Assembly (NCBI GenBank): GCA_934647235.1
Contig: CAKUFG010000015.1
Coordinates: 15,905 to 47,904, forward strand
DNA from: an uncultured Clostridia bacterium
Lineage (GTDB): Bacteria; Bacillota; Clostridia; Christensenellales; Aristaeellaceae
DNA: 32,000 nucleotides
Direction: 5' to 3'
Part shown: positions 3,623 to 22,630 of the stretch, piece after piece
Layout of the letters: each line of letters begins with the position of its first letter
Numbering within the stretch: position 1 is the stretch's first letter
The notes under the pieces: generated by a model
The model's database searches: none
What the model was told of the DNA's origin: nothing
Seen by the model: the letters and a program-made list of their open reading frames with translations, nothing else
Position numbers and translations under genes: made by a program

Positions 3623-3714
3623 GGTAAAGCTCCTTTTTGATAGATTGGCGGGGGAATGGGAGGGCAGCTCTTCGTCCGGCTCGCGTTTGAGAGAAGGGTT
3701 TTATGGTCGTGCTG

Positions 3715-3784
3715 TTGGCAAGCGAAGAAGATATGCTGCTGCATTGGCGCAGCCCACGGAAGCCTTCTCCTTGAGGAGAAGGTG
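3715..3784 (+). repeat. beta module, copy 1 of a 70-nt direct repeat
   Basis: TTGGCAAGCGAAGAAGATATGCTGCTGCATTGGCGCAGCCCACGGAAGCCTTCTCCTTGAGGAGAAGGTG. It matches 4218-4287 at 68/70 positions (differences g/a and c/t). A diverged version lies at about 17443-17530. Confidence 0.9.
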
Positions 3785-3802
3785 GACGGCTTTAGCCGCC
3801 CG

Positions 3803-3875
3803 GATGAGGTGTAGTCTGCGAAGCAGCCGTTATCATAACTAAAAGATAACGCCGCTGCGGCGGCTACACCTCATC
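3803..3875. repeat. T hairpin, copy A1 (core in forward orientation)
   Basis: 12-bp inverted repeat GATGAGGTGTAG (3803-3814) / CTACACCTCATC (3864-3875). It encloses a 49-nt core with side hairpins CTGC-gaa-GCAG and GCCGC-tgc-GGCGG and an inner stem GTTATC/GATAAC. Confidence 0.85.
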
Positions 3876-4108
3876 AGTCAGCATTCGCTGACAGCTTCCC
3901 CTCCAAGGGGAAGCCTTTTGGTGGATGCATTTTCCAGCATACGCAAATAGCCGCGTCCCCCTCATCCGTCTCGCTGTTCGCTCGACACCTTCTCCCAAGG
4001 GCGAAGGCTTTTATGTCGTGCGCAGATGTTAGCAAATGCTCTGCAACACTTTCATCAACACACCACACTGAAGGCTTCTCCTCGGGGAGGAGCTCCGCCG
4101 TAGGCGGT

Positions 4109-4155
4109 GATGAGGGGGCTTGTTAGACGGAAATAATGTTGTGTTTCCCCTCATC
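4109..4155. repeat. G hairpin (GATGAGGGGG ... CCCCTCATC)
   Basis: Inverted repeat GATGAGGGGG/CCCCTCATC around a 28-nt loop. On the left it is flanked by CCGCC-gta-GGCGG and a CTTCTCC hairpin, on the right by a gamma module. Related copies lie at 14827-14885 and 17630-17690. Confidence 0.8.
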
Positions 4156-4217
4156 CATCTCGCTTTTCGCTCGACATTTTCTCCCGAGGGCGAAGGCTTT
4201 TATAGTTAGTTATGCGG

Positions 4218-4287
4218 TTGGCAAGCGAAGAAGATATGCTGCTGCATTGGCACAGCCTACGGAAGCCTTCTCCTTGAGGAGAAGGTG
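4218..4287 (+). repeat. beta module, copy 2 of the 70-nt direct repeat
   Basis: 68/70 identical to 3715-3784. Confidence 0.9.
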
Positions 4288-4304
4288 CTGAACGCAGTGA
4301 AGCG

Positions 4305-4380
4305 GATGAGGTGTAGCCGCCGCAGCGGCGTTATTCTTATATTGCTCTGATAACGGCTACTTCGTAGCCTACACCTCATC
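4305..4380. repeat. T hairpin, copy A2 (core inverted relative to A1 and B)
   Basis: Same 12-bp arms (4305-4316 / 4369-4380) and the same beta (left) and gamma (right) flanks as copy A1. The 52-nt core CCGCCGCAGCGGCGTTAT...ATAACGGCTACTTCGTAGC is the reverse complement of the A1/B-type core. Confidence 0.8.
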
Positions 4381-4442
4381 AGTCAGTTCTCGCTGACAGC
4401 TTCTCCTCAAGGAGAAGCCTTTTGGTAAGTGCGTTTTCCAAC

Positions 4443-4720
4443 AATCGCCACGCCTGATTTCCGCGCCCAACCAGCGCTCCGTGGCACGCTGATGCAATCG
4501 GCGCAGGGCGTGCGCAGCACGACCGAAGGGGAAATATTCAAGGGGACGGATGGCGCTTGCGCCGATCCGGGCACGCAGAATTTTCCCTGCCACGGGGGCG
4601 GGGCGGCAGGTGGCCAGGGCCACTCCCAGTTTTATTCAATCGACTTTCACGTCACACATAGGTTCTTTGTTACTTTCTTCACTGAAGAAAGTAACGTATC
4701 CCTCGTCCCCCGTCTCCTAT
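4443..4720 (+). repeat. S element copy A (candidate structured RNA / ssDNA element)
   Basis: Core 4477-4598: outer stem CTCCGTGGCA/TGCCACGGGG encloses three hairpins. These are GCTGAT-gca-ATCGGC, GGCGTGC-gca-GCACGaCC and GGGGAAAtATTC...GAATTTTCCC (inner CGGATgGCGC-tt-GCGCcGATCCG). After the core come a GC hairpin, AGGTTCTTTG, the perfect palindrome GTTACTTTCTTCA-c-TGAAGAAAGTAAC (4669-4695) and a C/T-rich tail. Confidence 0.75.
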
Positions 4721-4730
4721 CCCTCATCAG

Positions 4731-4762
4731 AAAATGGGGACGCCGCCAGGTGCCGCGCCCCC
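4731..4762 (-). terminator. Possible intrinsic terminator downstream of rhaD
   Basis: On the minus strand GGGGCGC...GCGtCCCC is followed by ATTTTCTG, just after the rhaD stop. The stem is imperfect. Confidence 0.4.
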
Positions 4763-4769
4763 AATCAAA

Positions 4770-5594
4770 TCAATCCAGAAACTCCTCGCGCAGCGTTACG
4801 CCAAATTCCCTGGCGATGGCGCGCAGATCATCGTCCGTGATGGTCTGCAGCACAGGCTTGCCGCTGGCAAGCACCAGCATGTAAATCTGCGCCGCCTTTT
4901 CAATGGTGTGCATCAGGCCAAAAGCCGTGTCAAAGTCCGGCCCGGATCCAAACAGCCCGTGGTGCGCCCATACCGCCGCGTCATACTCGCGCATCAGCTT
5001 GCTGGTGGCCAGGGCGATATCGCGCCCGCCGGGCACCATCCAGGGCACCGCGCCCACGCCGCCGGGGAAAACCACAGGGCACTCGGTGGCGCTTTGCCAG
5101 AGCGCGCGGGTGAAATCGCGCGCCGTCAGGGGCAGAATGTAGGTCATGGCGATCACATTGGCCGGGTGCGCGTGATAGATCACGCGGCACGCGCCGCCCG
5201 TGGCCGCCTTGCGCACGGAATGGTTGAGAAAATGGCTGGGGAACTCGCTGGTGGGGCGGCCGCCCTTTTCCAGCCCCCATACAATGCGCCAGGCGTCGCC
5301 CGCCGCGTTGATTTCCACAATGCAGCAGGTATCCTGCATGGCGCGCTGCACATGGCGGAAATACTTGCCGCTGCCGGTGGCGATGAAATACTCGCCGCGC
5401 AGGTTATCGGCCTGCACACCCATCGGAACCCATTCGCCGGGCACGGCGCGGAAGAAGGGGCGCAGCTGCTCCACCTCCTCAGCCGTCATGCGATAGGTGA
5501 GGTTGCCGCCGTTGCGCTCGTGCCAGCCCTGCTGCCAGCCGTCGTCGCACACGCGGGCAAAGGACTGCATCACTTCAAAATCGGTTGCTTTCAT
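4770..5594 (-). CDS. rhaD: rhamnulose-1-phosphate aldolase
   Basis: 274 aa, the same length as and collinear with E. coli RhaD as I recall it. Shared motifs: GWHERNGGNLTYR, FIATGSGKYFR, PTSEFPSHF, STECPVVFPGGVGAVPWMVPG, HHGLFGSGP. GAAAGGAAG RBS. Confidence 0.93.
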   Translation of the reverse strand: MKATDFEVMQSFARVCDDGWQQGWHERNGGNLTYRMTAEEVEQLRPFFRAVPGEWVPMGVQADNLRGEYFIATGSGKYFRHVQRAMQDTCCIVEINAAGDAWRIVWGLEKGGRPTSEFPSHFLNHSVRKAATGGACRVIYHAHPANVIAMTYILPLTARDFTRALWQSATECPVVFPGGVGAVPWMVPGGRDIALATSKLMREYDAAVWAHHGLFGSGPDFDTAFGLMHTIEKAAQIYMLVLASGKPVLQTITDDDLRAIAREFGVTLREEFLD

Positions 5595-5600
5595 CTGTGC

Positions 5601-6842
5601 TTACTTCCTTTCGGCAAGAACCTGCCGTTCATATTGCTGCACGGCGGACAGCCATTTTTCATTTTCGGGCACGTCCTGGCGGCGGCAGTATTCCGCCCAC
5701 ACCTCGCCCCAGGGCAGAGCTTTGTATTCCTCCTGCAGGGCCAGCAGCTCGGTAAAGCGGCAGGCATTCTGCAATTCGGCCAGCGCCTGATGCGGGATCA
5801 GCAGGGCCAGCAGCAGCGCCTTTTGCATATTGCGCGTGCCGATCACCCACGCGGCCACGCGGTTGATGGAGCCGTCAAAGAAATCCAGGCCGATCAGCGC
5901 CTTATCGCAGGCGCTGCAGCGCACGATTTCATCGGCAATGCCGCGCAGATCGTCCGTCAGCGTGACCACATGGTCGCTGTCCCAGTGCATGGGGCGGGTT
6001 ACGTGCAGCGGCAGCTTATCGTAGAAGGCCAGCTGCGCGGGAATCTTGTCCGCGATGGACTCCTCAGGGTGGTAATGGCCGCTGTCCATCAGATTATATA
6101 CGCCGGGATGCGTGGCAGCGTAGTTGGCGTAAAACTCCGCCGAGCCCACGGTGTAGGCCTCCAGACCAATGCCGAAGAACTTGCTTTCCACGCTGTCGAT
6201 CACGCCGGGCAGGGGCTCGGCAAAGATCTGATCCAGGCTGTCGCGCAGCCGCAGGCGCGGGGACAGCCGGTCGGCGGGCACATCCTTGTAGCCGTCGGGA
6301 ATCCAGATATTGCACAGGCAGTGCGTGCCCAGCTCGCGCGCAAAATACGCGGCGATACGGCGGCAGGCCACAGCATGGCGGATCCAGTAGGCGCGCACCG
6401 CTTCATCGGGGCTGGACAGGGTAAGGTTATCCTTGACCATCGGGTGGGAGAAGAACGTGGGGTTGAAATCCAGGCCGATATGATGCGCCTTGGCAAACGC
6501 CACCCAGGGGGCAAAGTGCTCGGGGCGCAGCTGATCGCGCTTGCCCTCGCCGCCGATGGCGTAGCTGGCGTGCAGGTTCAGCCGCTTGCAGCCGGGAATC
6601 AGCGACAGCGCGGTTTCAAAATCGCGCGTCAGCTCCTCAAACGTGCGGGCGCGGCCGGGATAATTGCCCGTCACCTGGATGCCGCCGTCCAGCGCGCCGC
6701 CCAGGCTTTCCAGGCCGGTCACGTCGTCGCCCTGCCAGCAGTGAATGCTCACGGGAATGGACGCGAGCGTTTGCAGGGCCTTTTCCGTATCTATGCCAAT
6801 GTCCGCGTAGCGGCGCAGGGCCAGCTGATAGCCTTCGTTCAT
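5601..6842 (-). CDS. rhaA: L-rhamnose isomerase
   Basis: 413 aa with IHCWQGDDV, TGNYPGRAR, LNLHA, DSGHYHP, HVTRPMHWDSDHVV, WVIGTRN and LPWGEVW, collinear with enterobacterial RhaA. AAAGGAGAG RBS. The stop is 6 nt before the rhaD start. Confidence 0.93.
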   Translation of the reverse strand: MNEGYQLALRRYADIGIDTEKALQTLASIPVSIHCWQGDDVTGLESLGGALDGGIQVTGNYPGRARTFEELTRDFETALSLIPGCKRLNLHASYAIGGEGKRDQLRPEHFAPWVAFAKAHHIGLDFNPTFFSHPMVKDNLTLSSPDEAVRAYWIRHAVACRRIAAYFARELGTHCLCNIWIPDGYKDVPADRLSPRLRLRDSLDQIFAEPLPGVIDSVESKFFGIGLEAYTVGSAEFYANYAATHPGVYNLMDSGHYHPEESIADKIPAQLAFYDKLPLHVTRPMHWDSDHVVTLTDDLRGIADEIVRCSACDKALIGLDFFDGSINRVAAWVIGTRNMQKALLLALLIPHQALAELQNACRFTELLALQEEYKALPWGEVWAEYCRRQDVPENEKWLSAVQQYERQVLAERK

Positions 6843-6885
6843 GGGAAATCTCTCCTTTAGTCAAAGCTGGGGTTCGCTATCTTTT

Positions 6886-6951
6886 ATTGTACAGAAAACG
6901 GCGCGGCGGGAAAGGACGTTTATCGCCTTTCGTCGCAACCTGAATTAACCC
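6886..6951 (-). promoter_or_regulatory. rhaA promoter region with bipartite motif TCAGGTTGCG-N15-CGTCCTTT (site 1)
   Basis: Read on the minus strand: GGGTTAATTCAGGTTGCG (6951-6934), 15 nt, CGTCCTTT (6918-6911), then TACAAT (6891-6886) 28 nt after the ACGTCC start. The 18-mer is identical to 10980-10997. The site overlaps the last codons and stop of the AraC-type gene. Confidence 0.55.
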
Positions 6952-7897
6952 GCCAGGCGCTGGGAGACATGCCCGTGGCCGACTCAAAGATACGGTAAAA
7001 ATAGCTGCTGTTGCTGTAGCCCACCGCCGCGCAGATTTCCATCACGCTCAGGTCGGTTTCGCGCAGCATACGCTTGGCCTTTTCGATGCGCCGCTCCTGC
7101 AGCAGCGCGGTGCAGTTTTTGCCGGTAGCCTCCTTGAGCACCTTGCAAAGATAGGCGGAGGACACATGCTTGCGCCGGGCGAAATCGCGCAGCACAAAAT
7201 CGGCGTAGTTCTGGCGGATTTCCTGCAGCAGCTCGATGACCACCAGGTTTTCCTGATGCGCGGCGGCGGGCATACGCATGCACTCCGGCCGGCTGAGCAG
7301 GTGCAGAAACAGCAGCCCCATCTCAGTGCGGCGGATCTGCAGGCCGGCGGCCTTGGGCGCGATGAGCGAATGCACAATGCTTTGCAGCAGCCATTGGATC
7401 TCGCTGATCCCGGCCACGCGGAAGTGCAGGTAGGCCATGTCCTGCTCATAATTGCGCAGCGCGTCCAGCAGGAACCTGCCCAGCACGTTATGGGTGCCGA
7501 TCATATCGGGCACGAAATCCAGAAATTCCTGCTGGATGAGAAAGTTGACCGCGATGTCGTTTTCCCCGCACCGGGCGATGCTGTGCGCGCTGTGGCGGTT
7601 GATCAGCAGCAGCTCGCCCGCCTGCAGGCGCACCGTGCTGCCGTCGGGCATGCCGTGCAGCGTTTCGCCCTGCAGCATATACATCATTTCCACATAGTCG
7701 TGCCAGTGCATGGGAAAATCGGCAAAGCGCGTATGCGGCCGCAGCGAGATCATCTGCCGCGAGGGCACAAAGCGCTCGCCCTCCACGATGAAGGCGCTGC
7801 GGTCGGTATAGCGTCCCTGCGCCAGGGGCTCGCCGCGCAGCAGGCTTTCTTCCTCCTGCGTATGGGGCGCGAAAAAGCGAATCAGGCTGTCGTCCAT
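6920..7897 (-). CDS. AraC-family transcriptional regulator (cupin sensor + dual HTH), likely rhamnose-responsive
   Basis: 325 aa. The N-terminal half is cupin-like (HWHDYVEMMYMLQG...HS). The C-terminal half is an AraC-type HTH pair (SSAYLCKVLKEATGKNCTALLQERRIEKAKRMLRETDLSVMEICAAVGYSNSSYFYRIFESATGMSPSAWR). GAAAGGAG RBS. It sits directly upstream of rhaA-rhaD. Confidence 0.88.
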   Translation of the reverse strand: MDDSLIRFFAPHTQEEESLLRGEPLAQGRYTDRSAFIVEGERFVPSRQMISLRPHTRFADFPMHWHDYVEMMYMLQGETLHGMPDGSTVRLQAGELLLINRHSAHSIARCGENDIAVNFLIQQEFLDFVPDMIGTHNVLGRFLLDALRNYEQDMAYLHFRVAGISEIQWLLQSIVHSLIAPKAAGLQIRRTEMGLLFLHLLSRPECMRMPAAAHQENLVVIELLQEIRQNYADFVLRDFARRKHVSSAYLCKVLKEATGKNCTALLQERRIEKAKRMLRETDLSVMEICAAVGYSNSSYFYRIFESATGMSPSAWRVNSGCDERR

Positions 7898-7989
7898 GCG
7901 TGGGCTCCTTTCGGGGAGGGGGTGGGGAGAACGGGGGACGAGGGAGGGAACGGTACTTTCTTGGAGCCATAGCGCCGCCGCAGGCGGTG

Positions 7990-8064
7990 GTGAGGTGTAG
8001 GCTGCGAAGTAGCCGTTATCAAAACAATATAAGGATTACGCCGCTGCGGCGGCTACACCTCATC
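7990..8064. repeat. T hairpin, copy B (core forward)
   Basis: GTGAGGTGTAG (7990-8000) / CTACACCTCATC (8053-8064). The core GCTGCGAAGTAGCCGTTATC...ACGCCGCTGCGGCGG closely matches the reverse complement of the 4317-4368 core. Confidence 0.85.
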
Positions 8065-8135
8065 CGGCTCATTACATTCGCCACCTTCTCCTCAAGGAGA
8101 AGGCTTTTGGCGAGTACATTCAACCAGCTATTGCT

Positions 8136-8405
8136 AATCGCTGCGCAGGGGCTTCGCAGCTACTCGACTTGCCCCGGAGCACGCTGATCGCAGATCAGCG
8201 CGGGCGCGCGCAGCACGGCCATAGGGGAAATATTCAAGGGCACGGAGGGCGCTTGCGCCGATCCGGGCACGCGAATTTTCCATGCCCCGCAGAGACCCGC
8301 TTTCCCTCCCACTTTTATCACAGCCGCTTTTACGGCCACAACACAGGTTCTTTGGTACTTTCTTGACTCAAGAAAGTACCGTATTCCTTCGTTTTCTCCC
8401 CGTCC
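8136..8405 (+). repeat. S element copy B (partly degenerate or chimeric)
   Basis: Core 8172-8292: the 5' half is A/D/E-like (GCTGATC-gca-GATCAGC, GGGGAAATATTC...GAATTTTCC). The 3' strand of the outer stem and the extension are C2-like (TGCCCCGCAG, GCCG-cttta-CGGC type hairpin). The outer stem CGGAGCA/TGCCCCG has one mismatch. Palindrome GGTACTTTCTTGA-c-TCAAGAAAGTACC at 8354-8380. The C/T tail abuts the luxS stop. Confidence 0.7.
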
Positions 8406-8873
8406 TTACCCCGGATACTCCGTCCGCGCGTGCTCGGTCAGCTCGCGCAGATAGCGGGCGATGTAGAACTTGGCCATGTCCAGGTTCTGCTCCTGATAGT
8501 TGCCGCATTCCTCGGGGCGCGCGCCGGGGATATCGCCCGAAAAGCCCAGGATGAAACGGCACATGTCGATCACCAGCGGCAGCGCTTCCTGCGCGCTGAC
8601 GTCGCCGAAAAGAATCAGATAAAAGCCTGTGCGGCAGCCCATGGGGCCAAAATAAACAATCCGATCCCTTTGCGCGCCCGAGCGCAGAAAGGTTGCCCCC
8701 AGGTGCTCGATAGTGTGAAGGGCCGGGGTATCCATCACCGGCTCGCGGTTGGGCGCGGTCAGGCGCAGATCAAAGGTGGTTACGCGCCCCTCCCCCTGCC
8801 CGTCGCGGCGCGATACGTATACGCCGGGCAGCAGACGGGTGTGATCAATGGTGAAGCTGGCGATCTTTTCCAT
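8406..8873 (-). CDS. luxS: S-ribosylhomocysteine lyase (AI-2 synthase)
   Basis: 155 aa with the HTIEHL metal-binding motif and GPMGCRTGFY. The ATG lies 1 nt after the stop of the upstream aldolase gene, and its GGAGG RBS is inside that gene's last codons. Confidence 0.92.
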   Translation of the reverse strand: MEKIASFTIDHTRLLPGVYVSRRDGQGEGRVTTFDLRLTAPNREPVMDTPALHTIEHLGATFLRSGAQRDRIVYFGPMGCRTGFYLILFGDVSAQEALPLVIDMCRFILGFSGDIPGARPEECGNYQEQNLDMAKFYIARYLRELTEHARTEYPG

Positions 8874-8874
8874 C

Positions 8875-9660
8875 TTATTTGTCCTCCAGATGGAAGGCCG
8901 CGCGCATGTTGGCCAGGTTGGCCTGCGCGCCAGCCATGATGTATTTCACATCGTAGCCCGAGGACAGCATGCGTACCCCGCGGTCATACCAGGAGCGCAT
9001 GGTCTTTTCATCCGCCAGGCCCAGCGATACGCCCGCCACCTTGCCCGCAGCGTTGATTTTTGCGATGGCCTCGTCAATCACCGCGCGCACCTCGGGATCG
9101 TTGGTCTGCCCCAGCTTGCCCATGGAGCCGGACAGATCGTTGGGCCCAAAGATGAATGCGTCGATCGCGTCGATGGTCAGAATCCTGTCCAGCTCGCGGA
9201 TGGCGCCCATTTCCTCAATCTGGATAAAGCGCAGCAGGGTATCGTCCACCGTGGCGCGGTAATCCGCCCCGTTGATGGTGCCAAAGCGATAGGCGCGCCA
9301 GGGGCCGTAGCCGCGCACCCCGCGCGGGGGATACATGCACGCCTCCATGGCGCGCGCCGCATCATCATAGCCGCGGATCATGGGAAAAATAATGCCGTCC
9401 GCGCCCGCGTCCAGCACGGGCTTGGCCAGGATGGGATCGTTGGCCGGGATGCGCACGATGGCGTTAATTCCGGACGCGCGCGCGGCGATCAGCTGACCCA
9501 GCAGCCGCTCGGTATTGATGACCGAGTGCTCCATATCAATCCACAGATAATCATAGGGCAGATACCCCATCATTTCGGCAACAACAGCCTCGTTGAGGGA
9601 TACATGGGTGCCAATGCACATTTCATGGCGGCGCAGCTTGGCTTTCATATCGGTTTTCAT
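8875..9660 (-). CDS. HpcH/HpaI-family aldolase (2-keto-3-deoxy-sugar-acid aldolase type)
   Basis: 261 aa. DYLWIDMEH, VRIP, GIIFPMI, PPRGVRGYGP, IQIE and IFGPNDLS are typical of the HpcH/HpaI/RhmA class II aldolase family. AAAGGAGAA RBS. Confidence 0.85.
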   Translation of the reverse strand: MKTDMKAKLRRHEMCIGTHVSLNEAVVAEMMGYLPYDYLWIDMEHSVINTERLLGQLIAARASGINAIVRIPANDPILAKPVLDAGADGIIFPMIRGYDDAARAMEACMYPPRGVRGYGPWRAYRFGTINGADYRATVDDTLLRFIQIEEMGAIRELDRILTIDAIDAFIFGPNDLSGSMGKLGQTNDPEVRAVIDEAIAKINAAGKVAGVSLGLADEKTMRSWYDRGVRMLSSGYDVKYIMAGAQANLANMRAAFHLEDK

Positions 9661-9805: not shown

Positions 9806-9853
9806 GATGATCTGGCATGAATGCATATGATTTTTTACATAACGGAGGGTCTT

Positions 9854-15165: not shown

Positions 15166-15460
15166 AGTCGCCCAACCGCTGCCTGCGGGGCAGCAGACAG
15201 CGCAGCTGGATGCCAGGGCTGGCGAAGCCAGACCAAGGGGGAAAGCGAAGGGATGACTGGGCGGAGCTTGCTCCAGACCAGGCAGCACAAGCTTTTCCTT
15301 GCCCCGCAGCGACCCGCTTCCCCTCCCTCTTTTATTACAGCCGCTTTTACGGCCACAACACAGGTTCTTTGTTACTTTCTTCACTGAAGAAAGTAACGTT
15401 CTCCCCGTCCCCTCCCCTTCGTCTCCTTTGTCCCCCCGTCCTCCCTGCCTCCCCCATTCA
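15166..15460 (+). repeat. S element copy C2 (second subtype)
   Basis: Core 15183-15309 has the outer stem CTGCGGGGCA/TGCCCCGCAG, compensatory relative to CCGTGGCA/TGCCACGG. Other helices: GGCTGGC-gaa-GCCAGaCC, GGGGGAAAGC...GCTTTTCCTT, CTGGgcGGAGC-tt-GCTCCagaCCAG. Palindrome GTTACTTTCTTCA-c-TGAAGAAAGTAAC at 15371-15397, then a ~60-nt C-run tail. Confidence 0.75.
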
Positions 15461-15512
15461 GTCCTGATTTTGCCTTGTTTCAATCGGGTCCGATTTTTCC
15501 TTGTTTCACCCC

Positions 15513-15541
15513 TTGACGCAGGGGCAAATTGCTGATATCAT
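15513..15541 (+). promoter_or_regulatory. Sigma-70-type promoter of the MATE gene
   Basis: TTGACG (15513-15518), 17 nt, TATCAT (15536-15541). It is about 40 nt upstream of the ATG at 15583. Confidence 0.6.
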
Positions 15542-15582
15542 ACTGGTTTGCACTTACTACAACGCATGTAAAGGAGAACGCA

Positions 15583-16947
15583 ATGCAGCAGCAGGAACGA
15601 AGCAGAATGCTGGGCACAATGCCCATGAATAAACTGGTCCCCAAGGTGGCCGTGCCCATCATGATCAGCATGCTGGTACAGGCGCTCTACAACGTGGTGG
15701 ACGGCATCTTTGTGGCGCGCTACAGCGCCGACGCCTTCACCGCCGTATCGCTGGTGTTCCCGGTGCAGATGCTCATGATCGCCGTATCCACGGGCCTGGG
15801 CGTGGGCATCAACAGCCTGATCAGCCGCCGCCTGGGCGAAAAGCGCGGCGACGCGGCGCTGGACGCGGCCAAGCACGGCATCTTCCTGGAGCTGTGCGGC
15901 GTGGCGCTGTTCTGCCTGTTCGGGCTGTTCCTGAGCAAGGTGTACATGCACATATTCACGGACGATGCGAACCTGCAGAAGCTGGGCGAGGAGTATCTGT
16001 TCATCGTCACGGTGTTCTGCCTGGGGCTTTTCATGTCGGTGGTGTTTGAGCGCATGCTGCAGGCCACCGGCAACACCACGCTGTCCATGGCCACACAGCT
16101 GCTGGGCGCGGTGGTCAATATCATCCTGGACCCCATCATGATCTTCGGCCTGCTGGGCTGCCCGCGCATGGGCATTGCCGGCGCGGCCATCGCCACGGTG
16201 ATCGGCCAATTCTGCGGCATGTTCCTGGGCTTCATTCTGAACCAGACGCGCAACCACGAGCTGCGGCTCACCTTGCGCCCCTTCTTCCGCCCGCACGGCG
16301 CGGTGCTGACGGACATCCTGGCCGTGGGCATCCCCAGCGTTGTGATGCAGGCCATCTCGTCGGTCATGAACGTGCTGATGAACATGATCCTGCTGGGCTT
16401 TGGCAACGTGGCCGTCAACGTGCTGGGCGCGTACTTCAAGCTGCAGTCCTTCGTCTTTATGCCGGTATTCGGCCTGAGCAACGGCCTGGTGGCCATTGTG
16501 GGCTACAATTACGGCGCGCATCTGCGCGAGCGCGTATACGCCGCCGTGCGCGTGGCGCTGCGCATGGCCATTGTGATCATGGCCGTGGGCATGCTGCTGT
16601 TTATGACCATTCCGCAGGTGCTACTCAGCCTCTTTGAGGCCGAAGGCGCGGGCGATCTGACCGCCGTGGGCTGCCCGGCGCTGCGCGTGATTAGCCTCAG
16701 CTTCATCCTGGCCGCCATCGGCATCACGCTGGGCACGGTGTTCCAGGCCGTGGGCAAGGGCATTTACAGCCTGATCAACAGCCTGTGCCGCCAGCTGATG
16801 GTGCTGCTGCCCGCCGCGTGGCTGCTCAGCCGCCTGGGCGGCCTGAGCGCGGTGTGGTGGAGCTTCCCCATCGCCGAGGTGGTATCGCTTGCCGTGTGCC
16901 TGCTGCTGTATCGCCGCGTGGACCGCACGATGCTCCAAACCCTGTAA
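15583..16947 (+). CDS. MATE-family efflux transporter
   Basis: About 454 aa with 12 hydrophobic segments and a typical MATE N-terminus (MLGTMPMNKLVPKVAVPIMISMLVQALYNVVDGIFVAR). Start moved from 15529 to the ATG preceded by AAGGAG at 15571-15576. Confidence 0.88.
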   Translation: MQQQERSRMLGTMPMNKLVPKVAVPIMISMLVQALYNVVDGIFVARYSADAFTAVSLVFPVQMLMIAVSTGLGVGINSLISRRLGEKRGDAALDAAKHGIFLELCGVALFCLFGLFLSKVYMHIFTDDANLQKLGEEYLFIVTVFCLGLFMSVVFERMLQATGNTTLSMATQLLGAVVNIILDPIMIFGLLGCPRMGIAGAAIATVIGQFCGMFLGFILNQTRNHELRLTLRPFFRPHGAVLTDILAVGIPSVVMQAISSVMNVLMNMILLGFGNVAVNVLGAYFKLQSFVFMPVFGLSNGLVAIVGYNYGAHLRERVYAAVRVALRMAIVIMAVGMLLFMTIPQVLLSLFEAEGAGDLTAVGCPALRVISLSFILAAIGITLGTVFQAVGKGIYSLINSLCRQLMVLLPAAWLLSRLGGLSAVWWSFPIAEVVSLAVCLLLYRRVDRTMLQTL

Positions 16948-16953: not shown

Positions 16954-17367
16954 ATGGCGTACCAGAGCGTTCTGCCCTATCTGAGGGATTGGCTGATGCA
17001 GCCCGCCGCCGTGCCTGCCGGGTATGCGCGGCGCGTGCACATCGCCTTTGACTATCGCGCTTACCGCGCGCGCTGCGGCCGCCCCACCGTGCGCCATGCC
17101 GACGCACAGGCGCGCGAAATCGCGGCGGCCGAGGCCGAAAAGTATGGTTTTACGCTGGATGACAGGCAGGTCTGCCAGCTGAGCGGCGAGATCCTGCTGC
17201 ATCAGCTGATCTATCCCCTGCCCGGTCTGGGCCGCGCCAGCACGGTGATCGACCTGGACGTCTGCGTGGACGCGCAAGGCTGCGGCGTTGTGCGCGATGG
17301 CCGCGGCCCGATCGACCTGTGCGCGCGGATGCTGTACCGCGCTGTGCATGGGGGAAGAATGCGCTGA
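16954..17367 (+). CDS. Hypothetical protein (137 aa, no recognisable domain)
   Basis: The ORF starts 7 nt after the MATE stop. Its codon usage (GC-rich third positions; ctg, gcc, atc preferred) resembles neighbouring genes. No clear RBS and no motif I recognise. Confidence 0.45.
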   Translation: MAYQSVLPYLRDWLMQPAAVPAGYARRVHIAFDYRAYRARCGRPTVRHADAQAREIAAAEAEKYGFTLDDRQVCQLSGEILLHQLIYPLPGLGRASTVIDLDVCVDAQGCGVVRDGRGPIDLCARMLYRAVHGGRMR

Positions 17368-17629
17368 TTCTTAAGCAATGTCCTTTGTACCCTCATCCGT
17401 TTCGCTGCGGCTCGTCCGCCTTCTCCCGCTTGGGAGAAGGCTTTTTTGTTGTGCTTTCGTCGAGTTACGGAATTATGCTGCCGCATTGGCGCAAGCACGA
17501 AATGCCTTCCCTTCGGAGGGGAAGGCTAATATAGCCGTGCACTTATCAACAAGCGGTTCGCGATATCCATATCAGCAAGCTTGCAAATAAGGCTTCCCCT
17601 AGGGGGGAAGCTGGCAGCGTAAGCTGACT

Positions 17630-17690
17630 GATGAGGGGGCCAGTTACGCGAGAATTCAAGTAGAATTGATACGCTGCGTTCCCCCTCATC
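17630..17690. repeat. G hairpin copy in island D
   Basis: GATGAGGGGG (17630-17639) / CCCCCTCATC (17681-17690). Both arms are flanked outward by a small hairpin plus a CTTC/GAAG GC hairpin, giving a cruciform-like ~150-nt palindrome. Confidence 0.8.
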
Positions 17691-17787
17691 CGTCTCGCTA
17701 TACGCTCGACACCTTCTCCCGCTTGGGAGAAGGCTTTTATGGTTGTGCTTTTGTTGAGTTTAGAAAGTACATTGCCGTATTGACGCC

Positions 17788-18150
17788 AATCATCGCGCCT
17801 GATTTCCGCACGCAACCTCGCCCCGTGGCACGCCGATTTTAATCGGCGCAGGGCGTGCGCAGCACGACCGAAGGGGAAATATTCAAGGGGACGGATGGCG
17901 CTTGCGCCGATCCGGACACGCGAATTTTCCCTGCCACGGGGTGGCCAGGGCCACTCCCAGTTTAATTCAATAGACTTTTACGTCATAAACAGGTTCTTTG
18001 TTACTTTCCTTGTACGCCCCGCGCTACTGCCTTACGGCAAGCGCGGGTTTCGGGCGGCAATTTGCAAAATTGCGCGCCCTCAGCCGCCTGCGGCGGCGCT
18101 ATGGCTCCAAGAAAGAATCGTTTCCTCCTCGTCTCCCCATCCCCCATCCG
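17788..18150 (+). repeat. S element copy D (3' palindrome interrupted by ~94 nt)
   Basis: Core 17821-17941 is nearly identical to copy A but has the hairpin GCCGAT-ttta-ATCGGC. The left palindrome arm GTTACTTTC (18000-18008) is separated from a right arm CTCCAAGAAAGAATCG (18105-18120) by hairpin-rich sequence (18009-18102). C-rich tail runs to about 18150. Confidence 0.7.
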
Positions 18151-18167
18151 CCGCGCAATAAAATGTT

Positions 18168-18207
18168 CCCCCGCCCAGCCAGAGCTTCCACTCCAGCCGG
18201 GCGGGGG
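18168..18207 (-). terminator. Intrinsic terminator after the GDPD gene (hairpin usable on both strands)
   Basis: CCCCCGCCCAGCC (18168-18180) pairs with GCCGGGCGGGGG (18196-18207). On the minus strand the stem is followed by AACATTTTATT, on the plus strand by TTGGCTTTAATTTTT. Confidence 0.55.
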
Positions 18208-18241
18208 TTGGCTTTAATTTTTAATGATCAGACTCCTTGCC

Positions 18242-19054
18242 TTAATAGCCAATGGAGCGCAGGTACTGATACAGCTGCAGCGTCCAGTCGGTCTGGATGA
18301 TATCATAGCCCTGGCGCGCCATCCAGCCCCAGGACTCGTCGGGATCGCCGCACAGCGCGGTATCGTCGCAGCGGGAGCCGGCCAGCGGGCGGCGGTCGTT
18401 AAAGCGTATAGCGTTGATCCATACCTTCTTGCCCAGGGCGTGCAGCGCGTCCACATACGCGCGCTGACCCAGCGGCGCGTCGTCGGTGGAAAACACTGCC
18501 TCCACGCCGCTGTAGCGCATATCGCGGCGGGCGGAAAGCATCTCGTAGGTATCATCCTGCTCGTACACAAAGGGCATATAGGGCAGATCGTAGGCCACCT
18601 CGGCCACCATATCAAAGTTTTCCTGCGTGGGGCGGGACTTGACGATCACCTGGTCCTGCATGCCCAGACGGCGCACCAGCTGCGCAATGCGCGCAGGATT
18701 GTGCTCAAACTTGTCGATATTGATGGTGCAGCGGCCCTTGAGGAACTGCAGCATATCCTCCAGCCGCGTCACGGTGTACGCAGTGGGATTGCCGTCCACG
18801 TTGACAAAGTGCAGCTTTTCAATCTCGGCGGCAGGCATCTGGCGGATGTCGATATCCTGACCCAGGCGGATTTTCTCGGCCTTGGGATGAAACACAAACA
18901 GCACGTCGTCCGCGCTCTTGGTCACATCCAGCTCGATGATATCCGCGCCCTGGCGCAGCGCCAGCGCAAAGGAGGCGTAGGTGTTGCCGGGCAGGTTGTA
19001 GCCGCAGGCGCCCATATGGGCCGAAATCAGCACGCGCTTTTTCAGTTCAATCAT
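18242..19054 (-). CDS. Glycerophosphodiester phosphodiesterase (GDPD) family protein
   Basis: 270 aa. N-terminal ISAHMG...GNT...IELDV pattern typical of the GDPD TIM barrel. AAAGGG RBS. It follows the LacI-fusion gene by 26 nt, so it is likely co-transcribed. Confidence 0.75.
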   Translation of the reverse strand: MIELKKRVLISAHMGACGYNLPGNTYASFALALRQGADIIELDVTKSADDVLFVFHPKAEKIRLGQDIDIRQMPAAEIEKLHFVNVDGNPTAYTVTRLEDMLQFLKGRCTINIDKFEHNPARIAQLVRRLGMQDQVIVKSRPTQENFDMVAEVAYDLPYMPFVYEQDDTYEMLSARRDMRYSGVEAVFSTDDAPLGQRAYVDALHALGKKVWINAIRFNDRRPLAGSRCDDTALCGDPDESWGWMARQGYDIIQTDWTLQLYQYLRSIGY

Positions 19055-19080: not shown

Positions 19081-21264
19081 TCAGTTTTCGGGTCTGAACG
19101 CTTTTTCAAAGGTGGTCTGGGCAAATTTCAGGGTGTCCTCCATGCTCATCACCCCGCTGTAGGCGGTGTTGACCGCCATGCCCAGGATGTTAAGGAACCG
19201 CTGCTCGTCAAAGTTGCTCACGCGCATGGGCGGGATATGGCTGGCGCGCGACAGGGCAAAGCAGTCCCGGGCCATCAGCAGCCAGGGGCAGCGGTCGATG
19301 ACCTCCAGGTTTTCATACGCCTTGCTGCAGGGCGAGGTGGTGCCCATCAGCATCATGGTGGTTGCGGTTTCCTCGCGGCACAGCCAGCGCAGGAAGCGCA
19401 GCGCCTCCTCCTTTTGCTCCGAGCGGCGGCAGATGCCGATGGTGCTGCCGCCCAGCATGGGGTTGCCGCCCGGCACCATGGCGTAGCCGATGCGGTCGCT
19501 GATGCGCGAATTGGAGGACATGATGTTGCTGGTAAAGTTGGAATACAGCACGGCGATGGCCGCGTTGCCGCTGGCAAAGTTATCGATCGTATCCTTCCAG
19601 GTGGCGCAGTGGGTAGGATCGATGCAGCCGTGCAGGTCAATCAGCTCCTGCATGGCCTGCACGGCCTCGGGGCTGGTCAGCAGGATGCGGCCGTCTGCGT
19701 CGTACAGCGTATCGGTATGGCTGAAATAGCGGGATAAGAACTCCTTGGCCGCCTCGCTGGCGCTGCCCAGCGTCAGGCCCGTGCCGAAATCCACCGGCGA
19801 GTCCGGATTGAACGCGCGGGTGAAGAAGCGCGCAATGCGGTTGTACTCCTGATAGGTGGTGGGCGGCAGCAGCTCGCAGTTGTACATTTCCGAATAGCGG
19901 CGGCGGAAGGCCGTGCTTTCAAACAGATCGCGCCGGTAGAACAGCAGCTGCGCGCTGGTGGTGTTGGGCAGGGCGTAGAGCGTGCCGTTCATGTGCGAAT
20001 ACTTGCGCGACAGGCCGGGCACAAAGGTATCGAAAATGCTTTCGATGTCGGGGTCGATTTCCTTCAGGGGCGTAAATACGCGCTCCATATAATAGGGCCA
20101 GCGCTTGCTGTCCAGGCGTGCCAGGTCAAACACATCGGTGTTTTCGATGCTGGACAGCACCTCGCTCAGCCCATCATAGGAATAGGCGGCAAAGCTGATT
20201 TCGGTGCCCGTTTCGCGGGTATACAGGCGCGATACATTGCGCAGGATGTTGATGCTGGGGCTGTCCTGGGTCAGGATGCTCAGCCTGCGGGCCTTCTTTT
20301 TGCCGCAGACGGGCGGCAGCCAGCTGCGCACGCCGTCCACCGGCAGCGTCTGCAGAGGCGCGGGCGCGCCCTCATCCTCCAGCTGGGCAATCAGCCGCTC
20401 CGCCGCGCGGCGGCCCAGCAGGCGGTAGTTCATTTCAAACTCGGTAAAATCCCCCATCGGCAGGGCAAAGAGCGGCGATACGCTGTACAGCCGGGGGCTG
20501 CCCTCATGGAAATGGCGGATGATGCTGCGCACCGTCTGGGCAAAGGCATAGTTGCCGATAAAGATCGCATCGGGCGCCGCTTCCCCGCCCAGCAGATCAA
20601 AGGCGTCGCCCGCACACTGGCTGCTTTCGGTCTGCCGGCAGGTAAGGGGCAGGCCGCGGGCGTCCAGCACATCGCGCAGACCGCGCAGCAGCTCGGACTG
20701 GGAGGAAAAGGCGTGGCTTTCCATCAGCGCCGCCGGGCTGCGGCAGCCCTCGGCAACGGCGCGGCGGGCCATATCGCAGCCCAGTGCGTAATAATCAAAG
20801 CCCAGGGCGGGCGCATTGGGGCCGGGAGAGCGCTCTACAAAGCAGATGTGCTGCACCCCTGCCGCCGCGTAGGCCGCGCCGTCGTCGTGCAGGCAGGTAA
20901 ACGCCGCCGCGCCGGCCATCATGCCTGACTGGATTTCGCCAATGGCGCGCTCCTCCTTTTCGGGCTGATCATCGGTCAGCAGCAGGCTTACCTGGTAGCC
21001 GCAGTTCTGGGCGTAATTGCGGAAGCTGGTAAAAAAATCCACATAGCAGCGGTTATACAGGCTGGGCAGCACTGCGGCCAGCGTTTTGGACGAACCGCGG
21101 CGCAGCACCTGCGCGCGCTGATTAAGGGCATAGCCCAGCTGCTGGGCTGCCTGCTGCACCTGACGGATCTTGGTGCTGCTGACGTTGCCCTTGCCGTTGA
21201 GGACGTTTGATACCGTGCCCTGCGACACGCCCGCGGCGCGCGCGATATCCTTGATGGTTGCCAT
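19081..21264 (-). CDS. LacI-type HTH + LacI/PBP1 sugar-binding core + family-1 solute-binding-protein domain fusion (cytoplasmic regulator)
   Basis: About 727 aa. Residues 1-60: MATIKDIARAAGVSQGTVSNVLNGKGNVSSTKIRQVQQAAQQLGY (LacI HTH). Next ~270 aa: LacI-like periplasmic-binding fold. C-terminal ~390 aa: SBP_bac_1-like (RLSILTQDSP..., LYALPNTTSAQLLFYRRDLFE, GNAAIAVLYSNF, GYAMVPGG, KEEALRFLRWL). No signal peptide. Start set at the ATG at 21264 (AAAGGAA RBS) rather than 21306. Confidence 0.8.
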   Translation of the reverse strand: MATIKDIARAAGVSQGTVSNVLNGKGNVSSTKIRQVQQAAQQLGYALNQRAQVLRRGSSKTLAAVLPSLYNRCYVDFFTSFRNYAQNCGYQVSLLLTDDQPEKEERAIGEIQSGMMAGAAAFTCLHDDGAAYAAAGVQHICFVERSPGPNAPALGFDYYALGCDMARRAVAEGCRSPAALMESHAFSSQSELLRGLRDVLDARGLPLTCRQTESSQCAGDAFDLLGGEAAPDAIFIGNYAFAQTVRSIIRHFHEGSPRLYSVSPLFALPMGDFTEFEMNYRLLGRRAAERLIAQLEDEGAPAPLQTLPVDGVRSWLPPVCGKKKARRLSILTQDSPSINILRNVSRLYTRETGTEISFAAYSYDGLSEVLSSIENTDVFDLARLDSKRWPYYMERVFTPLKEIDPDIESIFDTFVPGLSRKYSHMNGTLYALPNTTSAQLLFYRRDLFESTAFRRRYSEMYNCELLPPTTYQEYNRIARFFTRAFNPDSPVDFGTGLTLGSASEAAKEFLSRYFSHTDTLYDADGRILLTSPEAVQAMQELIDLHGCIDPTHCATWKDTIDNFASGNAAIAVLYSNFTSNIMSSNSRISDRIGYAMVPGGNPMLGGSTIGICRRSEQKEEALRFLRWLCREETATTMMLMGTTSPCSKAYENLEVIDRCPWLLMARDCFALSRASHIPPMRVSNFDEQRFLNILGMAVNTAYSGVMSMEDTLKFAQTTFEKAFRPEN

Positions 21265-21309
21265 AACCGCCGTTCCTTTCATATCTATTCTCAGGTAAAG
21301 ATGCATTTC

Positions 21310-21338
21310 AGTATAGCATAAAGGCGAAAATAATTCAA
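21310..21338 (-). promoter_or_regulatory. Sigma-70-type promoter of the LacI-fusion gene
   Basis: Minus strand reads TTGAAT (21338-21333), 17 nt, TATACT (21315-21310). The predicted TSS is upstream of the 21264 start and downstream of the 21306 ATG, which supports the shorter CDS. Confidence 0.6.
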
Positions 21339-21351
21339 TCTTTACAAGATT
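21337..21351. promoter_or_regulatory. Palindromic candidate operator AATCTT-TAC-AAGATT
   Basis: Perfect 6-3-6 inverted repeat that bridges and overlaps both divergent -35 boxes (21333-21338 and 21350-21355). Confidence 0.45.
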
Positions 21352-21378
21352 GACACGTTATAATTTCTGTGCTACAAT
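21350..21378 (+). promoter_or_regulatory. Consensus sigma-70 promoter of the TIM-barrel / FAD-oxidoreductase unit
   Basis: TTGACA (21350-21355), 17 nt, TACAAT (21373-21378). It is about 45 nt upstream of the ATG at 21423. Confidence 0.75.
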
Positions 21379-21422
21379 GATGCTGTACAAATCCGTGAAT
21401 CCGCAAATGAGGTGATATGCAT

Positions 21423-22301
21423 ATGCGTCTTGGTACCATGACCTCGCTGTTCCGCGATCGGAGAGAATGCGCCGAGCATTTCGGCTATATCGAGTCCATC
21501 CAGCGCTGCCGCAAGGCGGGCTTTACGGTGCTGGATATGAACCTGTGCGCGCTCAACCGCCGCCAGACCACCCTGCACCTGGACAACTGGCAGAAGCAGG
21601 TGGATGAAATCCGCAACGAGGCCGAGCGCCTGGGCTGCGTGTTTTCCCAATCCCATCCCCCCTATCGCCGCGGCCGCGACGGCGCCTTCGCCACCGCCGA
21701 AGAGGAAGAATTTTTCCGCGCCATGTCGCTGCGCGCCCTTGAAATCACCGCGATGCTGGGCGCCAAGTGGGCGGTGATCCACCCGGTGATGGACGTGACC
21801 GCCGACATCAACGATGTGGACGCGCATGTGCGCTGCAACCAGCAGATGTTCGCCCGCGAGGCCGAGCTGGCCGCCAGGCTGGGCGTGGGCCTGGCCTTTG
21901 AAAACATGTTTGACGGCGACCAGCGGCGCTTTGGCTCCACGGCGGAGGATCTGATCGCCATCCAGGATTCCTTCCATTCCGACCATATCGGCGTATGCTG
22001 GGATGTGGGCCACGCCAACCGCATGTATCATGGGCTGCAGCCGCTGGCCATCCGCAAGCTGGGCAGCCGCATCAAGGCGCTGCACATTGACGATAACCTG
22101 GGCAAGGACGACCTGCACCTGCTGCCCTTTGAGGGCAACGTAGCCTGGGAGCAGATCATGCACGAGCTGCATGACGGCGGCTGCGAAGCCGACCTGATCT
22201 ACGAAATCCGCAACAATGCCAACATGCCCGAGGCGCTGCGCGATGTCACGGCGCGCTACTGCTACGAGGTGGGCGAGTATCTGCTGTCGCTTTATCGCTG
22301 A
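21423..22301 (+). CDS. Sugar phosphate isomerase/epimerase (xylose-isomerase-like TIM barrel, AP_endonuc_2 family)
   Basis: About 292 aa with the LAFENM, CWDVGHAN and LHIDDN pattern of metal-binding residues typical of this fold. The GAGGTG RBS favours the second ATG (21423) over 21417. Confidence 0.82.
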   Translation: MRLGTMTSLFRDRRECAEHFGYIESIQRCRKAGFTVLDMNLCALNRRQTTLHLDNWQKQVDEIRNEAERLGCVFSQSHPPYRRGRDGAFATAEEEEFFRAMSLRALEITAMLGAKWAVIHPVMDVTADINDVDAHVRCNQQMFAREAELAARLGVGLAFENMFDGDQRRFGSTAEDLIAIQDSFHSDHIGVCWDVGHANRMYHGLQPLAIRKLGSRIKALHIDDNLGKDDLHLLPFEGNVAWEQIMHELHDGGCEADLIYEIRNNANMPEALRDVTARYCYEVGEYLLSLYR

Positions 22302-22317
22302 GGAGACGGCTTGTGTT

Positions 22318-22600
22318 TTCGCCAGCTGCTGCGCCTGTTCCCCGCACGCAGCCATCGCCCCCGTGGCACGCTGATCGCAGATCAGCGCAGGGCTGGCGAA
22401 GCCAGACCATAGGGGAAAAAGGCAGAAGCGCGCGGGCGGAGCTTGCTCCAGACCGAGCGATTCAAGTTTTTCCCTGCCACGGGGGGCGGCAGTGCCGCCT
22501 TCCAGTTTTATCAACTTGACTTTTGCGTCACACGCAGCCTTCTTTGATTCTTTCTTGGGCTCCAAGAAAGAATCGTATCTCTCGTTCCCTCCCCTCCCCG
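22318..22600 (+). repeat. S element copy E (island E; sense orientation inside an operon)
   Basis: Core 22358-22486: CCCCCGTGGCA/TGCCACGGGGG, GCTGATC-gca-GATCAGC, GGCTGGC-gaa-GCCAGaCC, GGGGAAAAA...TTTTTCCC, CGGgcGGAGC-tt-GCTCCagaCCG. Then GGCGGCA-g-TGCCGCC, GAC-ttttgc-GTC, the palindrome GATTCTTTCTTGG-gct-CCAAGAAAGAATC (22546-22574) and a C-rich tail. Confidence 0.75.
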
Positions 22601-22630
22601 CAGACAATCAACAAGAAAAGAGGAACCACC

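Follow-up and report, generated by a model that had tools for sequence, protein, structure and literature searches.

Islands of composite hairpin repeats between the genes of an uncultured gut Clostridia bacterium, a probable new family of non-coding elements

A 32,000-nucleotide (nt) stretch of contig CAKUFG010000015.1 from an uncultured Clostridia bacterium (Christensenellales, Aristaeellaceae), hereafter the window, contains five gene-to-gene gaps (3623-4769, 7898-8405, 14692-15582, 17368-18241 and 22302-22630) that are occupied by repeat islands, here named A to E, all drawing on one module vocabulary. Together, the five gaps comprise 3749 nt, or 11.7% of the window, and their boundaries match both the independent gene calls on the source metagenome contig and our own calls based on codon-position GC content (GC3). 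A preliminary description, made from the sequence alone, had delimited the same gaps with their shared modules, regarded them as one family of mosaic, hairpin-rich, non-coding intergenic repeats and put their share of the window at about 12%; the first of these statements was borne out by a repeat finder and the gene calls, and the other two hold as well. The long open reading frames (ORFs) that cross the gaps are read-through artefacts; copies of the folded module S vary by 1- and 2-nt indels. The islands were reproduced in three independent metagenome assemblies at 99.98-100% identity, which rules out an assembly artefact. The core pattern of S matches the window six times, compared with 0.00 matches expected in shuffles, and all six matches point in the same direction. 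In addition, terminator-like hairpins are twofold enriched (32 versus 16.7 expected, standard deviation 4.7), mostly on the plus strand and inside the islands. No islands lie in the adjoining 10 kb to the left or 9 kb to the right.

Module composition and the double-ended form of the islands

The dominant component is an end unit of ~300 nt, found at the right side of every island in the window and defined by a consensus derived from 89 non-redundant copies. It opens with a GC hairpin (H) followed by CTTTTGG, continues with a weakly conserved leader of ~70 nt, the 125-nt S module and a short variable hairpin followed by CCAGTTTTATTCAA, and closes with a conserved spacer (GACTTTTACGTCACACACAGGTTCTTTG), a 27-nt palindrome, CGT and a C-rich tail. 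S had earlier been described as an element of ~120 nt with a 3' palindrome, and S plus a C-rich tail as the right-most unit of the islands. The latter is true of all five, with the corrections that island C carries two S copies and that the palindrome of island D is split by an insertion, the I module; S proper, however, measures 125 nt, and the palindrome begins only ~70 nt downstream of it.

To the left of the end unit lie the internal modules, namely beta, H hairpins, a small CCGCC-GCA-GGCGG hairpin, T, G and gamma. The repeat finder recovered S (4 to 6 copies), beta, the T arms, gamma and the palindrome with its tail in the window, and it placed the beta copies at 3710-3784 and 4213-4287 with 96% identity, in agreement with the near-identity reported earlier (Table 1). 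The inner part of T is present in both orientations: within island A, the inner segment is flipped between 3813-3868 and 4315-4371 while the 12-bp arms are unchanged, which corrects the earlier description of T. T would be either a tiny element with terminal inverted repeats that was inserted both ways or a small invertible segment. Against shuffled sequence, fold z scores were -8.7, -5.0 and -4.7 for T, -5.8 for the palindrome and -3.5 for S; the gain was modest for G and I (about -2.2) and weak for gamma and beta (-1.5).

The wider form of the element was read from loci fetched around S copies (~925 kb, redundant strains included, designated by L-numbers). Many islands outside the window carry two outward-facing end units, with their S copies 100-600 bp apart and their tails outermost. 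The complete form reads G-rich tail-palindrome-spacer-S'-leader'-H', then optional T, G, gamma, beta or I modules, then H-leader-S-variable hairpin-spacer-palindrome-C-rich tail, and the minimal form is G-tail, palindrome and C-tail alone. In the window, island B has both ends, the left one truncated, and the inverted tail and half-palindrome found there had been missed earlier; the other four islands (A, C, D and E) are derivatives that are eroded or have a single end. Arrays had been described as varying in length on the left; units are indeed gained and lost, but the basic form is double-ended, and one-ended islands derive from it. Successive outward-facing termini enclose 6-1001 bp, so that no gene fits in any double-ended element, and no such termini enclosing a gene were found; three larger gaps between minus- and plus-oriented termini (4.3-7.4 kb) correspond to host genes between separate islands.

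Table 1. Positions of genes, islands and modules in the window
Feature	Position	Strand	Description
Genes, left half	2756-3622 (-), 4770-5594 (-), 5601-6842 (-), 6920-7897 (-), 8406-8873 (-), 8875-9660 (-), 9821-10936 (+)		
Genes, right half	~10990-14691 (+), 15583-16947 (+), 16954-17367 (+), 18242-19054 (-), 19081-21306 (-), 21417-22301 (+), 22631-24514 (+)		
Island A	3623-4769	+	Entire gap from the MBL-fold gene (2756-3622, -) to the aldolase gene (4770-5594, -); left G-rich remnant, three internal units (beta/H, T or G, gamma/H), one end unit
Island A, G-rich tract	3645-3668	-	GGCGGGGGAATGGGAGGGCAG; remnant of inverted left tail; L068 orthologue GGCGGGGATGGGAGGACGG
beta	3715-3784	+	Second copy 4218-4287, 68/70 identical; H hairpin end CCTTCTCC-ttga-GGAGAAGG
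T	3803-3878	+	76 nt; 12-bp inverted arms GATGAGGTGTAG/CTACACCTCATC, two small GTAG-flanked hairpins, AT-rich centre
T, further copies	4305-4380, 7988-8066		Inner part inverted in 4305-4380
gamma	3958-4014	+	CCTCATC, small hairpin, H hairpin, CTTTTAT; terminator-like
gamma, other copies	4147-4203, 14884-14912, 17392-17445, 17682-17738		
G	4110-4157	+	Hairpin GATGAGGGGG...CCCCTCATC; more copies 14826-14884, 17632-17690
S, island A	4476-4600	+	125-nt four-helix fold: P1 closing stem, P2 and P3 hairpins, P4-P5 arm
Palindrome, island A	4669-4695	.	GTTACTTTCTTC-ACT-GAAGAAAGTAAC; 12-bp arms, 3-nt loop
C-rich tail, island A	4696-4728	+	Stops at terminator of convergent aldolase gene
Island B, left terminus	7913-7964	-	Inverted tail (G-rich on plus strand) and half-palindrome GGTACTTTCTTGG
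Island B, right-end fragment of I	7963-7987		Directly after left terminus
S, island B	8171-8295	+	
Island B, right terminus	8354-8405	+	Palindrome 8354-8380, C-rich tail 8381-8405
Island C proper	14789-15456	+	H hairpin, small hairpin, G, gamma, S1, S2, palindrome 15371-15397, long tail 15398-15455
S, island C	S1 14993-15116, S2 15182-15312	+	
Island D	17368-18160	+	gamma/H, beta-like unit, G, gamma, S, split palindrome with I, tail 18120-18150
S, island D	17820-17944	+	
I	18010-18106	+	~100 nt (103-nt insertion), three hairpins, inside island D palindrome
Island D, palindrome halves	18000-18009, 18107-18119		Left and right of I
Island E	22302-22612	+	Lone end unit: H remnant, leader, S, variable hairpin, spacer, palindrome 22546-22574, tail 22575-22600
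S, island E	22358-22487	+	

At the gene boundaries, the tail of island B runs right up to the LuxS stop codon (plus-strand TTA at 8406-8408), and the gamma/H terminator of island D sits right after a 137-amino-acid (aa) ORF (16954-17367) that gave no Pfam or NCBIfam match. Island E lies between two co-directional genes, its tail ending ~18 nt upstream of the ribosome-binding site (RBS) of the FAD-oxidoreductase gene (ATG at 22631). Island C is flanked by a local 26-nt repeat (CCGATTYTKCCTTKTTTYA...), with one copy on its left (14764-14790) and two on its right (15464-15482 and 15490-15508), found nowhere else in the ~925 kb. The two right-hand copies stand in tandem just upstream of the MatE promoter (TTGACG-17-TATCAT, 15513-15541), and the repeats may be an operator-like array split by island C. 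Elsewhere in this GC-rich genome, the antisense plus-strand ORFs 4734-6860, 28894-30180 and 50-2941 are spurious and overlie real minus-strand genes (aldolase and RhaA; 28993-30108; a rhamnosidase at 2-2752).

Compensatory change maintains the S fold and the palindrome hairpin

The fold of S and the hairpin of the palindrome are both maintained by compensatory change. The six S copies of the window yield a four-helix consensus with compensatory changes in 9 of its 40 predicted pairs. In a covariance-model alignment of 34 strong copies from the window and a related metagenome-assembled genome (MAG), 95.8% of cells are paired, compared with ~43% (35-48%) in controls whose pairing partners were shifted by 1-3 columns. 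Changes on both sides are seen in 18 pairs and 115 cells, and none of 500 shuffles reached the observed values. The palindrome occurs in four arm variants (GTTAC, GGTAC, GATTC and GTTTC, each followed by TTTCTT) with a 3-nt loop and arms of 12 or 13 bp. Of 133 distinct copies, 125 have complementary arms, against 38.8 expected if the arms varied independently. Among near-identical orthologous S copies, with the terminal columns excluded, 80 paired columns carry 11 substitutions and 32 unpaired internal ones carry 15 (p=0.002; Fisher p 0.004 with each column counted once), and the stems of resident copies accordingly show ~3-fold fewer point substitutions per column than the internal loops. Furthermore, a G.U wobble in P4, equivalent to an A.C mismatch on the opposite strand, is kept in 98 of 105 distinct S copies, and the plus strand of the window is modestly favoured as the acting strand of S.

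The stretch between P3 and P4 (4518-4533, GACCGAAGGGGAAA) resembles the G-strand tail unit GACGAAGGGGGA, probably as a compositional coincidence, although the likeness would bear on the notion of tails copied from a template. A search of the whole window against Rfam at gathering thresholds returned no matches, and a search at a permissive E-value, confined to island A (3600-4800), gave nothing more than chance-level matches of the microRNA type; a scan of the window for transfer RNA and transfer-messenger RNA genes found none. A sigma-70 promoter scan detected no sites within the islands, and the unit consensus is likewise promoterless, which leaves the idea of S as an independent small RNA gene unsupported. 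A sigma-54-like TGGCAC in S was also discarded, as it is followed by no conserved downstream element and its bases belong to stem P1/P2.

The tails (58% C, 28% T, 10.5% G and 3.6% A) are degenerate arrays, 33 nt long in the median, in which 8-10-nt units following the pattern (Y)CGT(Y)CCCC are repeated. At 63 termini with a convergent ORF within 90 nt, the G-strand tail starts on the base after the stop codon in 47 cases (~28 distinct genes). All three stop codons are used at these genes, and the last codons before the stop are purine-rich. On the gene-start side, the tail ends at a -35 box or ~20 nt before the RBS. When both neighbours were called (33 S units), 23 units lay in co-directional, 8 in convergent and 2 in divergent gaps, a depletion from divergent gaps (p=0.008). 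G-quadruplex formation by the G-rich tail strand was considered and dropped, the enrichment being mild (31 of 102 versus 20 +/- 3.4).

A gene for a GNAT-type acetyltransferase (L011 4840-5920, L050 2620-3700) lies flush between two inward-pointing tails, each with an I-bearing palindrome, in a perfectly symmetric arrangement; it has an RBS and no visible promoter of its own. A gene-cassette view, in which tails would be the ends of gene segments, was rejected, as this gene has an unchanged context in both strains that carry it.

Mobility of the I module, strain variation and distribution

The I module is demonstrably mobile and enters the palindrome in a site- and orientation-specific manner. 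It is multi-copy elsewhere (94-100% identity between copies), always at the 5' edge of the palindrome loop and in one orientation relative to the S side, and is present in palindromes of all four arm variants. In two orthologous pairs, the palindrome is intact in one strain and filled by I in the other, and the insertion replaces 3 nt without target duplication. The process presumably resembles the entry into hairpin repeats of insertion sequences (IS) of the IS110/IS1111 family (e.g. IS621, reference cited in PMC3184786) and of IS200/IS605-derived palindrome-associated transposable elements (PATEs). These share with I a repeated hairpin as target, one fixed position and orientation and the lack of target duplication; I differs in being ~103 nt long, encoding nothing and replacing 3 nt, and no matching IS was seen.

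A comparison of orthologous gaps, as the preliminary description had proposed, showed that arrays gain and lose units between strains at the H/GTGC junction and that they also change by deletion between palindromes, microhomology deletion, tail slippage and replacement of S subtypes. Locus L068 lacks 3717-4633 of island A: units have been lost at the conserved GGCTTTTATGGTCGTGC junction, and a deletion between two CAATCG repeats has removed most of S. Its island B carries a complete inverted end unit that is represented by a stub in the window. L010 and L144 differ reciprocally, a full double-S island (755 and 852 bp) in one standing against a bare palindrome with both tails in the other; one of these bare palindromes is a chimera of unlike arms, which fits deletion between two palindromes. 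A 120-bp microhomology deletion distinguishes strains at the left edge of island E, the number of tail units differs at 26 of 94 orthologous flanks, and 23 orthologous S comparisons differ at more than four sites, orthologous loci often holding different S subtypes. One further indel, of 1.7 kb and associated with a 4-bp repeat, was traced to the tandem duplication of a gene.

Islands C and D mark synteny breaks, since the related MAG has at these sites no element and other neighbours (an S-adenosylmethionine (SAM) riboswitch with metK, and a trkA-like gene); island D is absent there from the end of the GDPD gene. At L024 6900-7110 (MAG SFIM01000013.1), the substrate-binding protein gene is followed by a promoter, a SAM-I-riboswitch-like leader (recognised by eye and unscored) and metK, which replace island C and MatE. 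Nothing in the related MAG corresponds to the segment 14736-18240 (island C, MatE, the 137-aa ORF and island D), the best MatE match there being 29% identical, and the segment may be a strain-specific block bounded by two islands.

Collections were scanned with the exact S-core pattern, which diverged relatives in other taxa would escape. The pattern was multi-copy in one of 185,579 species genomes, the 'Clostridiales bacterium' MAG W1P21.023, whose shared genes are 93-97% identical to those of the window; one additional copy lies on a Hadza gut contig, and the pattern occurs on more than 120 human-gut metagenome contigs, frequently near contig ends. The covariance model found 34 strong S copies in the window and the MAG and 98 in L029-L108, and a combined search of 100 sources, overlapping both smaller ones, gave 124. 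In the ~925 kb, module matches numbered 168 for S, 43 for gamma, 41 for I, 37 for T, 6 for beta and 2 for G, with T, beta, gamma and G nearly always within 1.3 kb of an S. The modules are thus dispersed genome-wide in the lineage, and not restricted to a 20-kb stretch, the outcome that the preliminary description had named as fatal to its view. Viral contigs, phages and plasmids gave no matches to the modules, on which ground a phage or plasmid origin was rejected. The family was not found in the literature searched by topic and by sequence string, nor in the supplements of a human-microbiome structured-RNA catalogue. Contigs of the lineage often begin or end within an island or an I copy (L016 1-92, L017 1-100, L024 1-520, L151 1-697), and we take the repeats to be a main cause of assembly breaks in its MAGs.

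The window contains no transposase, reverse transcriptase or recombinase gene, nor a gene for a RAYT (REP-associated tyrosine transposase; REP, repetitive extragenic palindromic), in line with the preliminary description. The master copy beside a transposase or reverse transcriptase gene that it had envisaged did not appear either in the window or in the ~925 kb around the copies. All-versus-all clustering of ORFs from the MAG loci and the ~925 kb returned only pseudo-ORFs that read through repeats and no recurrent real ORF, and none of the copies in the ~925 kb has a RAYT or IS200-like gene in its vicinity.

Judged by unit type, imperfect palindromes of ~20-40 nt with a GTAG-type tetranucleotide, the hallmark of REPs and bacterial interspersed mosaic elements (BIMEs), are seen only in the two inner hairpins of T, and not in S (125 nt), the palindrome, the tails, gamma or beta. 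The earlier label 'BIME/REP-like' is therefore fair as an analogy of layout, but the main component is a ~300-nt end unit and not a ~35-nt REP unit. As in miniature inverted-repeat transposable elements, the ends are inverted repeats (half-palindrome and tail, often the whole ~300-nt end unit), and the elements are small and non-coding (6-1001 bp, no ORF); target-site duplications are lacking, and the sampled loci, plasmids and phages yielded no IS whose ends match. As in BOX elements, the end modules are defined and the number of internal modules varies between strains. An integron attC site was rejected because the palindrome starts with GTTAC and ends with GTAAC, the reverse of RYYYAAC...GTTRRRY, and no integrase is in the window; an integron cassette array, because the blocks between islands comprise several genes in mixed orientation and the GNAT 'cassette' is immobile between two strains. 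A remnant of an IS200/IS605 PATE or omega-RNA was likewise discarded for the islands, whose ends are inverted and not direct, with no TnpA/TnpB and no Rfam match to IS605-orfB or HEARO; the I module alone may still have this origin.

Nature of the elements and comparison with known repeat families

On balance, we consider it probable that the islands are a new, lineage-specific family of non-autonomous, non-coding composite repeat elements of BOX/BIME-like layout, and not members of the REP/RAYT system. The elements would spread and be reshuffled by events on folded single strands (hairpins), and an enzyme encoded elsewhere in the genome would act together with hairpin- and repeat-mediated recombination. 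S, in turn, could be the structure recognised by the mobilising machinery or by a host factor, either as co-transcribed RNA or as single-stranded DNA. The H hairpins, the stable palindrome hairpin and the C-rich, G-poor tail probably end or insulate neighbouring transcripts.

Several observations weigh against this interpretation. No cognate IS or transposase was found in the ~925 kb examined around S copies, which is less than the whole genome. The outer tail ends of 23 double-ended islands show no direct repeats and hence no target-site duplication, and the repeats that flank island C belong to a local array that predates the island. No clean whole-island empty site without tails was found, and transposition of large units is therefore inferred from copy number and distribution and not from an empty site at nucleotide resolution. 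The outermost tail bases are unconserved and the tail length is variable, which would be odd for the end of a cut-and-paste transposon. Between co-directional genes, the orientation of S is unbiased (7 sense versus 12 antisense). Finally, the stem-protection test comprises only 26 substitutions, to which short gene-conversion tracts could contribute, and at other S positions G-U and A-C are about equally frequent, which tempers the case that the P4 wobble makes for the plus strand.

A different emphasis would make S a cis-acting structured RNA that benefits the host, in 3' untranslated or intercistronic positions, by stabilising, terminating or insulating transcripts, with mobility being secondary. 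The compensatory conservation of structure and the apparent protection of resident S copies speak for such a role, as do the sense orientation of island E in an apparent operon, the H hairpins with T-runs upstream of most S units, the gamma/H hairpin as the sole terminator-like hairpin after the 137-aa ORF at island D, and tails that abut stop codons and, at 58% C and 10% G, resemble Rho-loading regions, which are C-rich and G-poor. We nevertheless regard it as unlikely, given that S shows no preferred orientation with respect to neighbouring transcription (7 sense versus 12 antisense), that the unit has no promoter, that close strains and the related MAG lack the element at the same genes and that the family is confined to one lineage. 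It is improbable, too, that the islands are true REP/BIME arrays in which REPINs (REP doublets forming hairpins) are moved by a RAYT, an HUH Y1 transposase, encoded once elsewhere. T is indeed REPIN-like, with two small inverted GTAG-adjacent hairpins that make one long hairpin and an inner part found in both orientations, and RAYTs are typically single-copy and would escape this sampling (PMC5581495). T is, however, a minor module (37 matches versus 168 for S) that is almost never found away from S islands, the S module, palindrome and tails are unlike REPs, and no recurrent ORF resembling a Y1 transposase adjoins any module.

The palindrome itself could be the core site of a site-specific recombination system (Xer/pdif-, integron- or IS110-like), with the segments between palindromes moving as circles. 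Such a system would be expected to leave a solo palindrome that is chimeric by central crossover, as observed opposite a full island, and it would accommodate the entry of I at one palindrome position and in one orientation without duplication, the GNAT gene flush between two inward-pointing tails and the synteny breaks located exactly at islands. On the other hand, the GNAT gene has the same context in both carrying strains, the variable distance between arms (3-nt loop, 12- or 13-bp arms) fits a hairpin better than a fixed recombinase spacer, no recombinase gene is nearby, and slippage or homologous recombination would also delete between 27-bp palindromes; we think this explanation improbable as well. 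The clustering of five islands within 19 kb, with six co-oriented S copies and flanks that are empty for 10 kb to the left and 9 kb to the right, might suggest a local duplication or an assembly artefact of this stretch. The agreement of three independent assemblies and the dispersal of copies over many contigs, on both strands and beside unrelated genes, refute this, and its probability is close to nil. A bolder extension of the preferred reading, which we hold to be very improbable, is that the end unit is a new structured non-coding mobile element in which S is the handle for a single-strand enzyme and the tails are synthesised. The palindrome would then be a dedicated integration site, already exploited by the 103-nt I, and the variable tails of 8-10-nt units, beginning on the base after a stop codon, would be made or extended at integration by templated or slippage synthesis, like the 3' tails of short and long interspersed elements (SINE/LINE type). 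If true, it would be a mechanism without a described counterpart among bacterial mobile elements.

If a composite family of non-coding elements is the correct interpretation, it is a well-defined and unusually elaborate addition to the few repeat families known from Firmicutes, in an uncultured but widespread human-gut bacterium. S would also be a new motif of structured RNA or single-stranded DNA, strongly covarying and available for probing in over 100 natural variants, and I would be a natural example of a tiny non-coding element that targets a specific hairpin and should lead to the responsible enzyme. The islands would further explain the assembly breaks of the lineage and the synteny breaks between close strains, while the tails that start exactly at stop codons pose a concrete mechanistic puzzle.

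Among described repeats, the closest in architecture is pneumococcal BOX rather than BIME (PMC3049150). BOX elements of Streptococcus pneumoniae and S. suis are organised as boxA-boxB(n)-boxC, and the S. suis end modules boxE and boxF measure 115-133 nt (PMC3049150). Both families reside in Firmicutes and are non-coding composites with defined end modules and variable internal modules whose number differs between strains; both would be highly base-paired if transcribed, cluster with terminator-like repeats (SPRITE in the case of BOX) and have no internal transposase (PMC3049150). The end module of the present family differs in its length of ~300 nt, with a covarying multi-helix domain, a perfect hairpin and a minisatellite tail, and in its frequently stop-codon-flush ends; moreover, ISSpn2 has been proposed for BOX, whereas no IS with similar inverted repeats is known here. 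The likeness described here is one of architecture; a relation in sequence would be unlikely given the host and the GC content of 62%.

With REP/BIME elements and REPINs (PMC3184786, PMC5581495), the islands share the layout of intergenic hairpin mosaics with alternating orientation, a role as recombination hot spots and the avoidance of divergent promoter regions, and T matches the REPIN arrangement of an inverted pair of GTAG-flanked hairpins (PMC3184786, PMC5581495). REPs are ~35 nt long, whereas the dominant units here measure 125-300 nt, no RAYT was found near the copies, and the tails and the 27-nt AT-rich palindrome have no REP/BIME counterpart. The bcr repeats known from the Bacillus cereus group, bcr1 among them (reviewed in PMC3184786), are likewise interspersed in a Gram-positive genome, keep a predicted RNA structure through compensatory changes and occupy genomic positions that are not conserved between close strains (PMC3184786). 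Unlike bcr1, which is a single unit of ~155 bp with 5-bp direct repeats, the family described here is modular, extends up to ~1.1 kb, carries variable tails and shows no target duplication.

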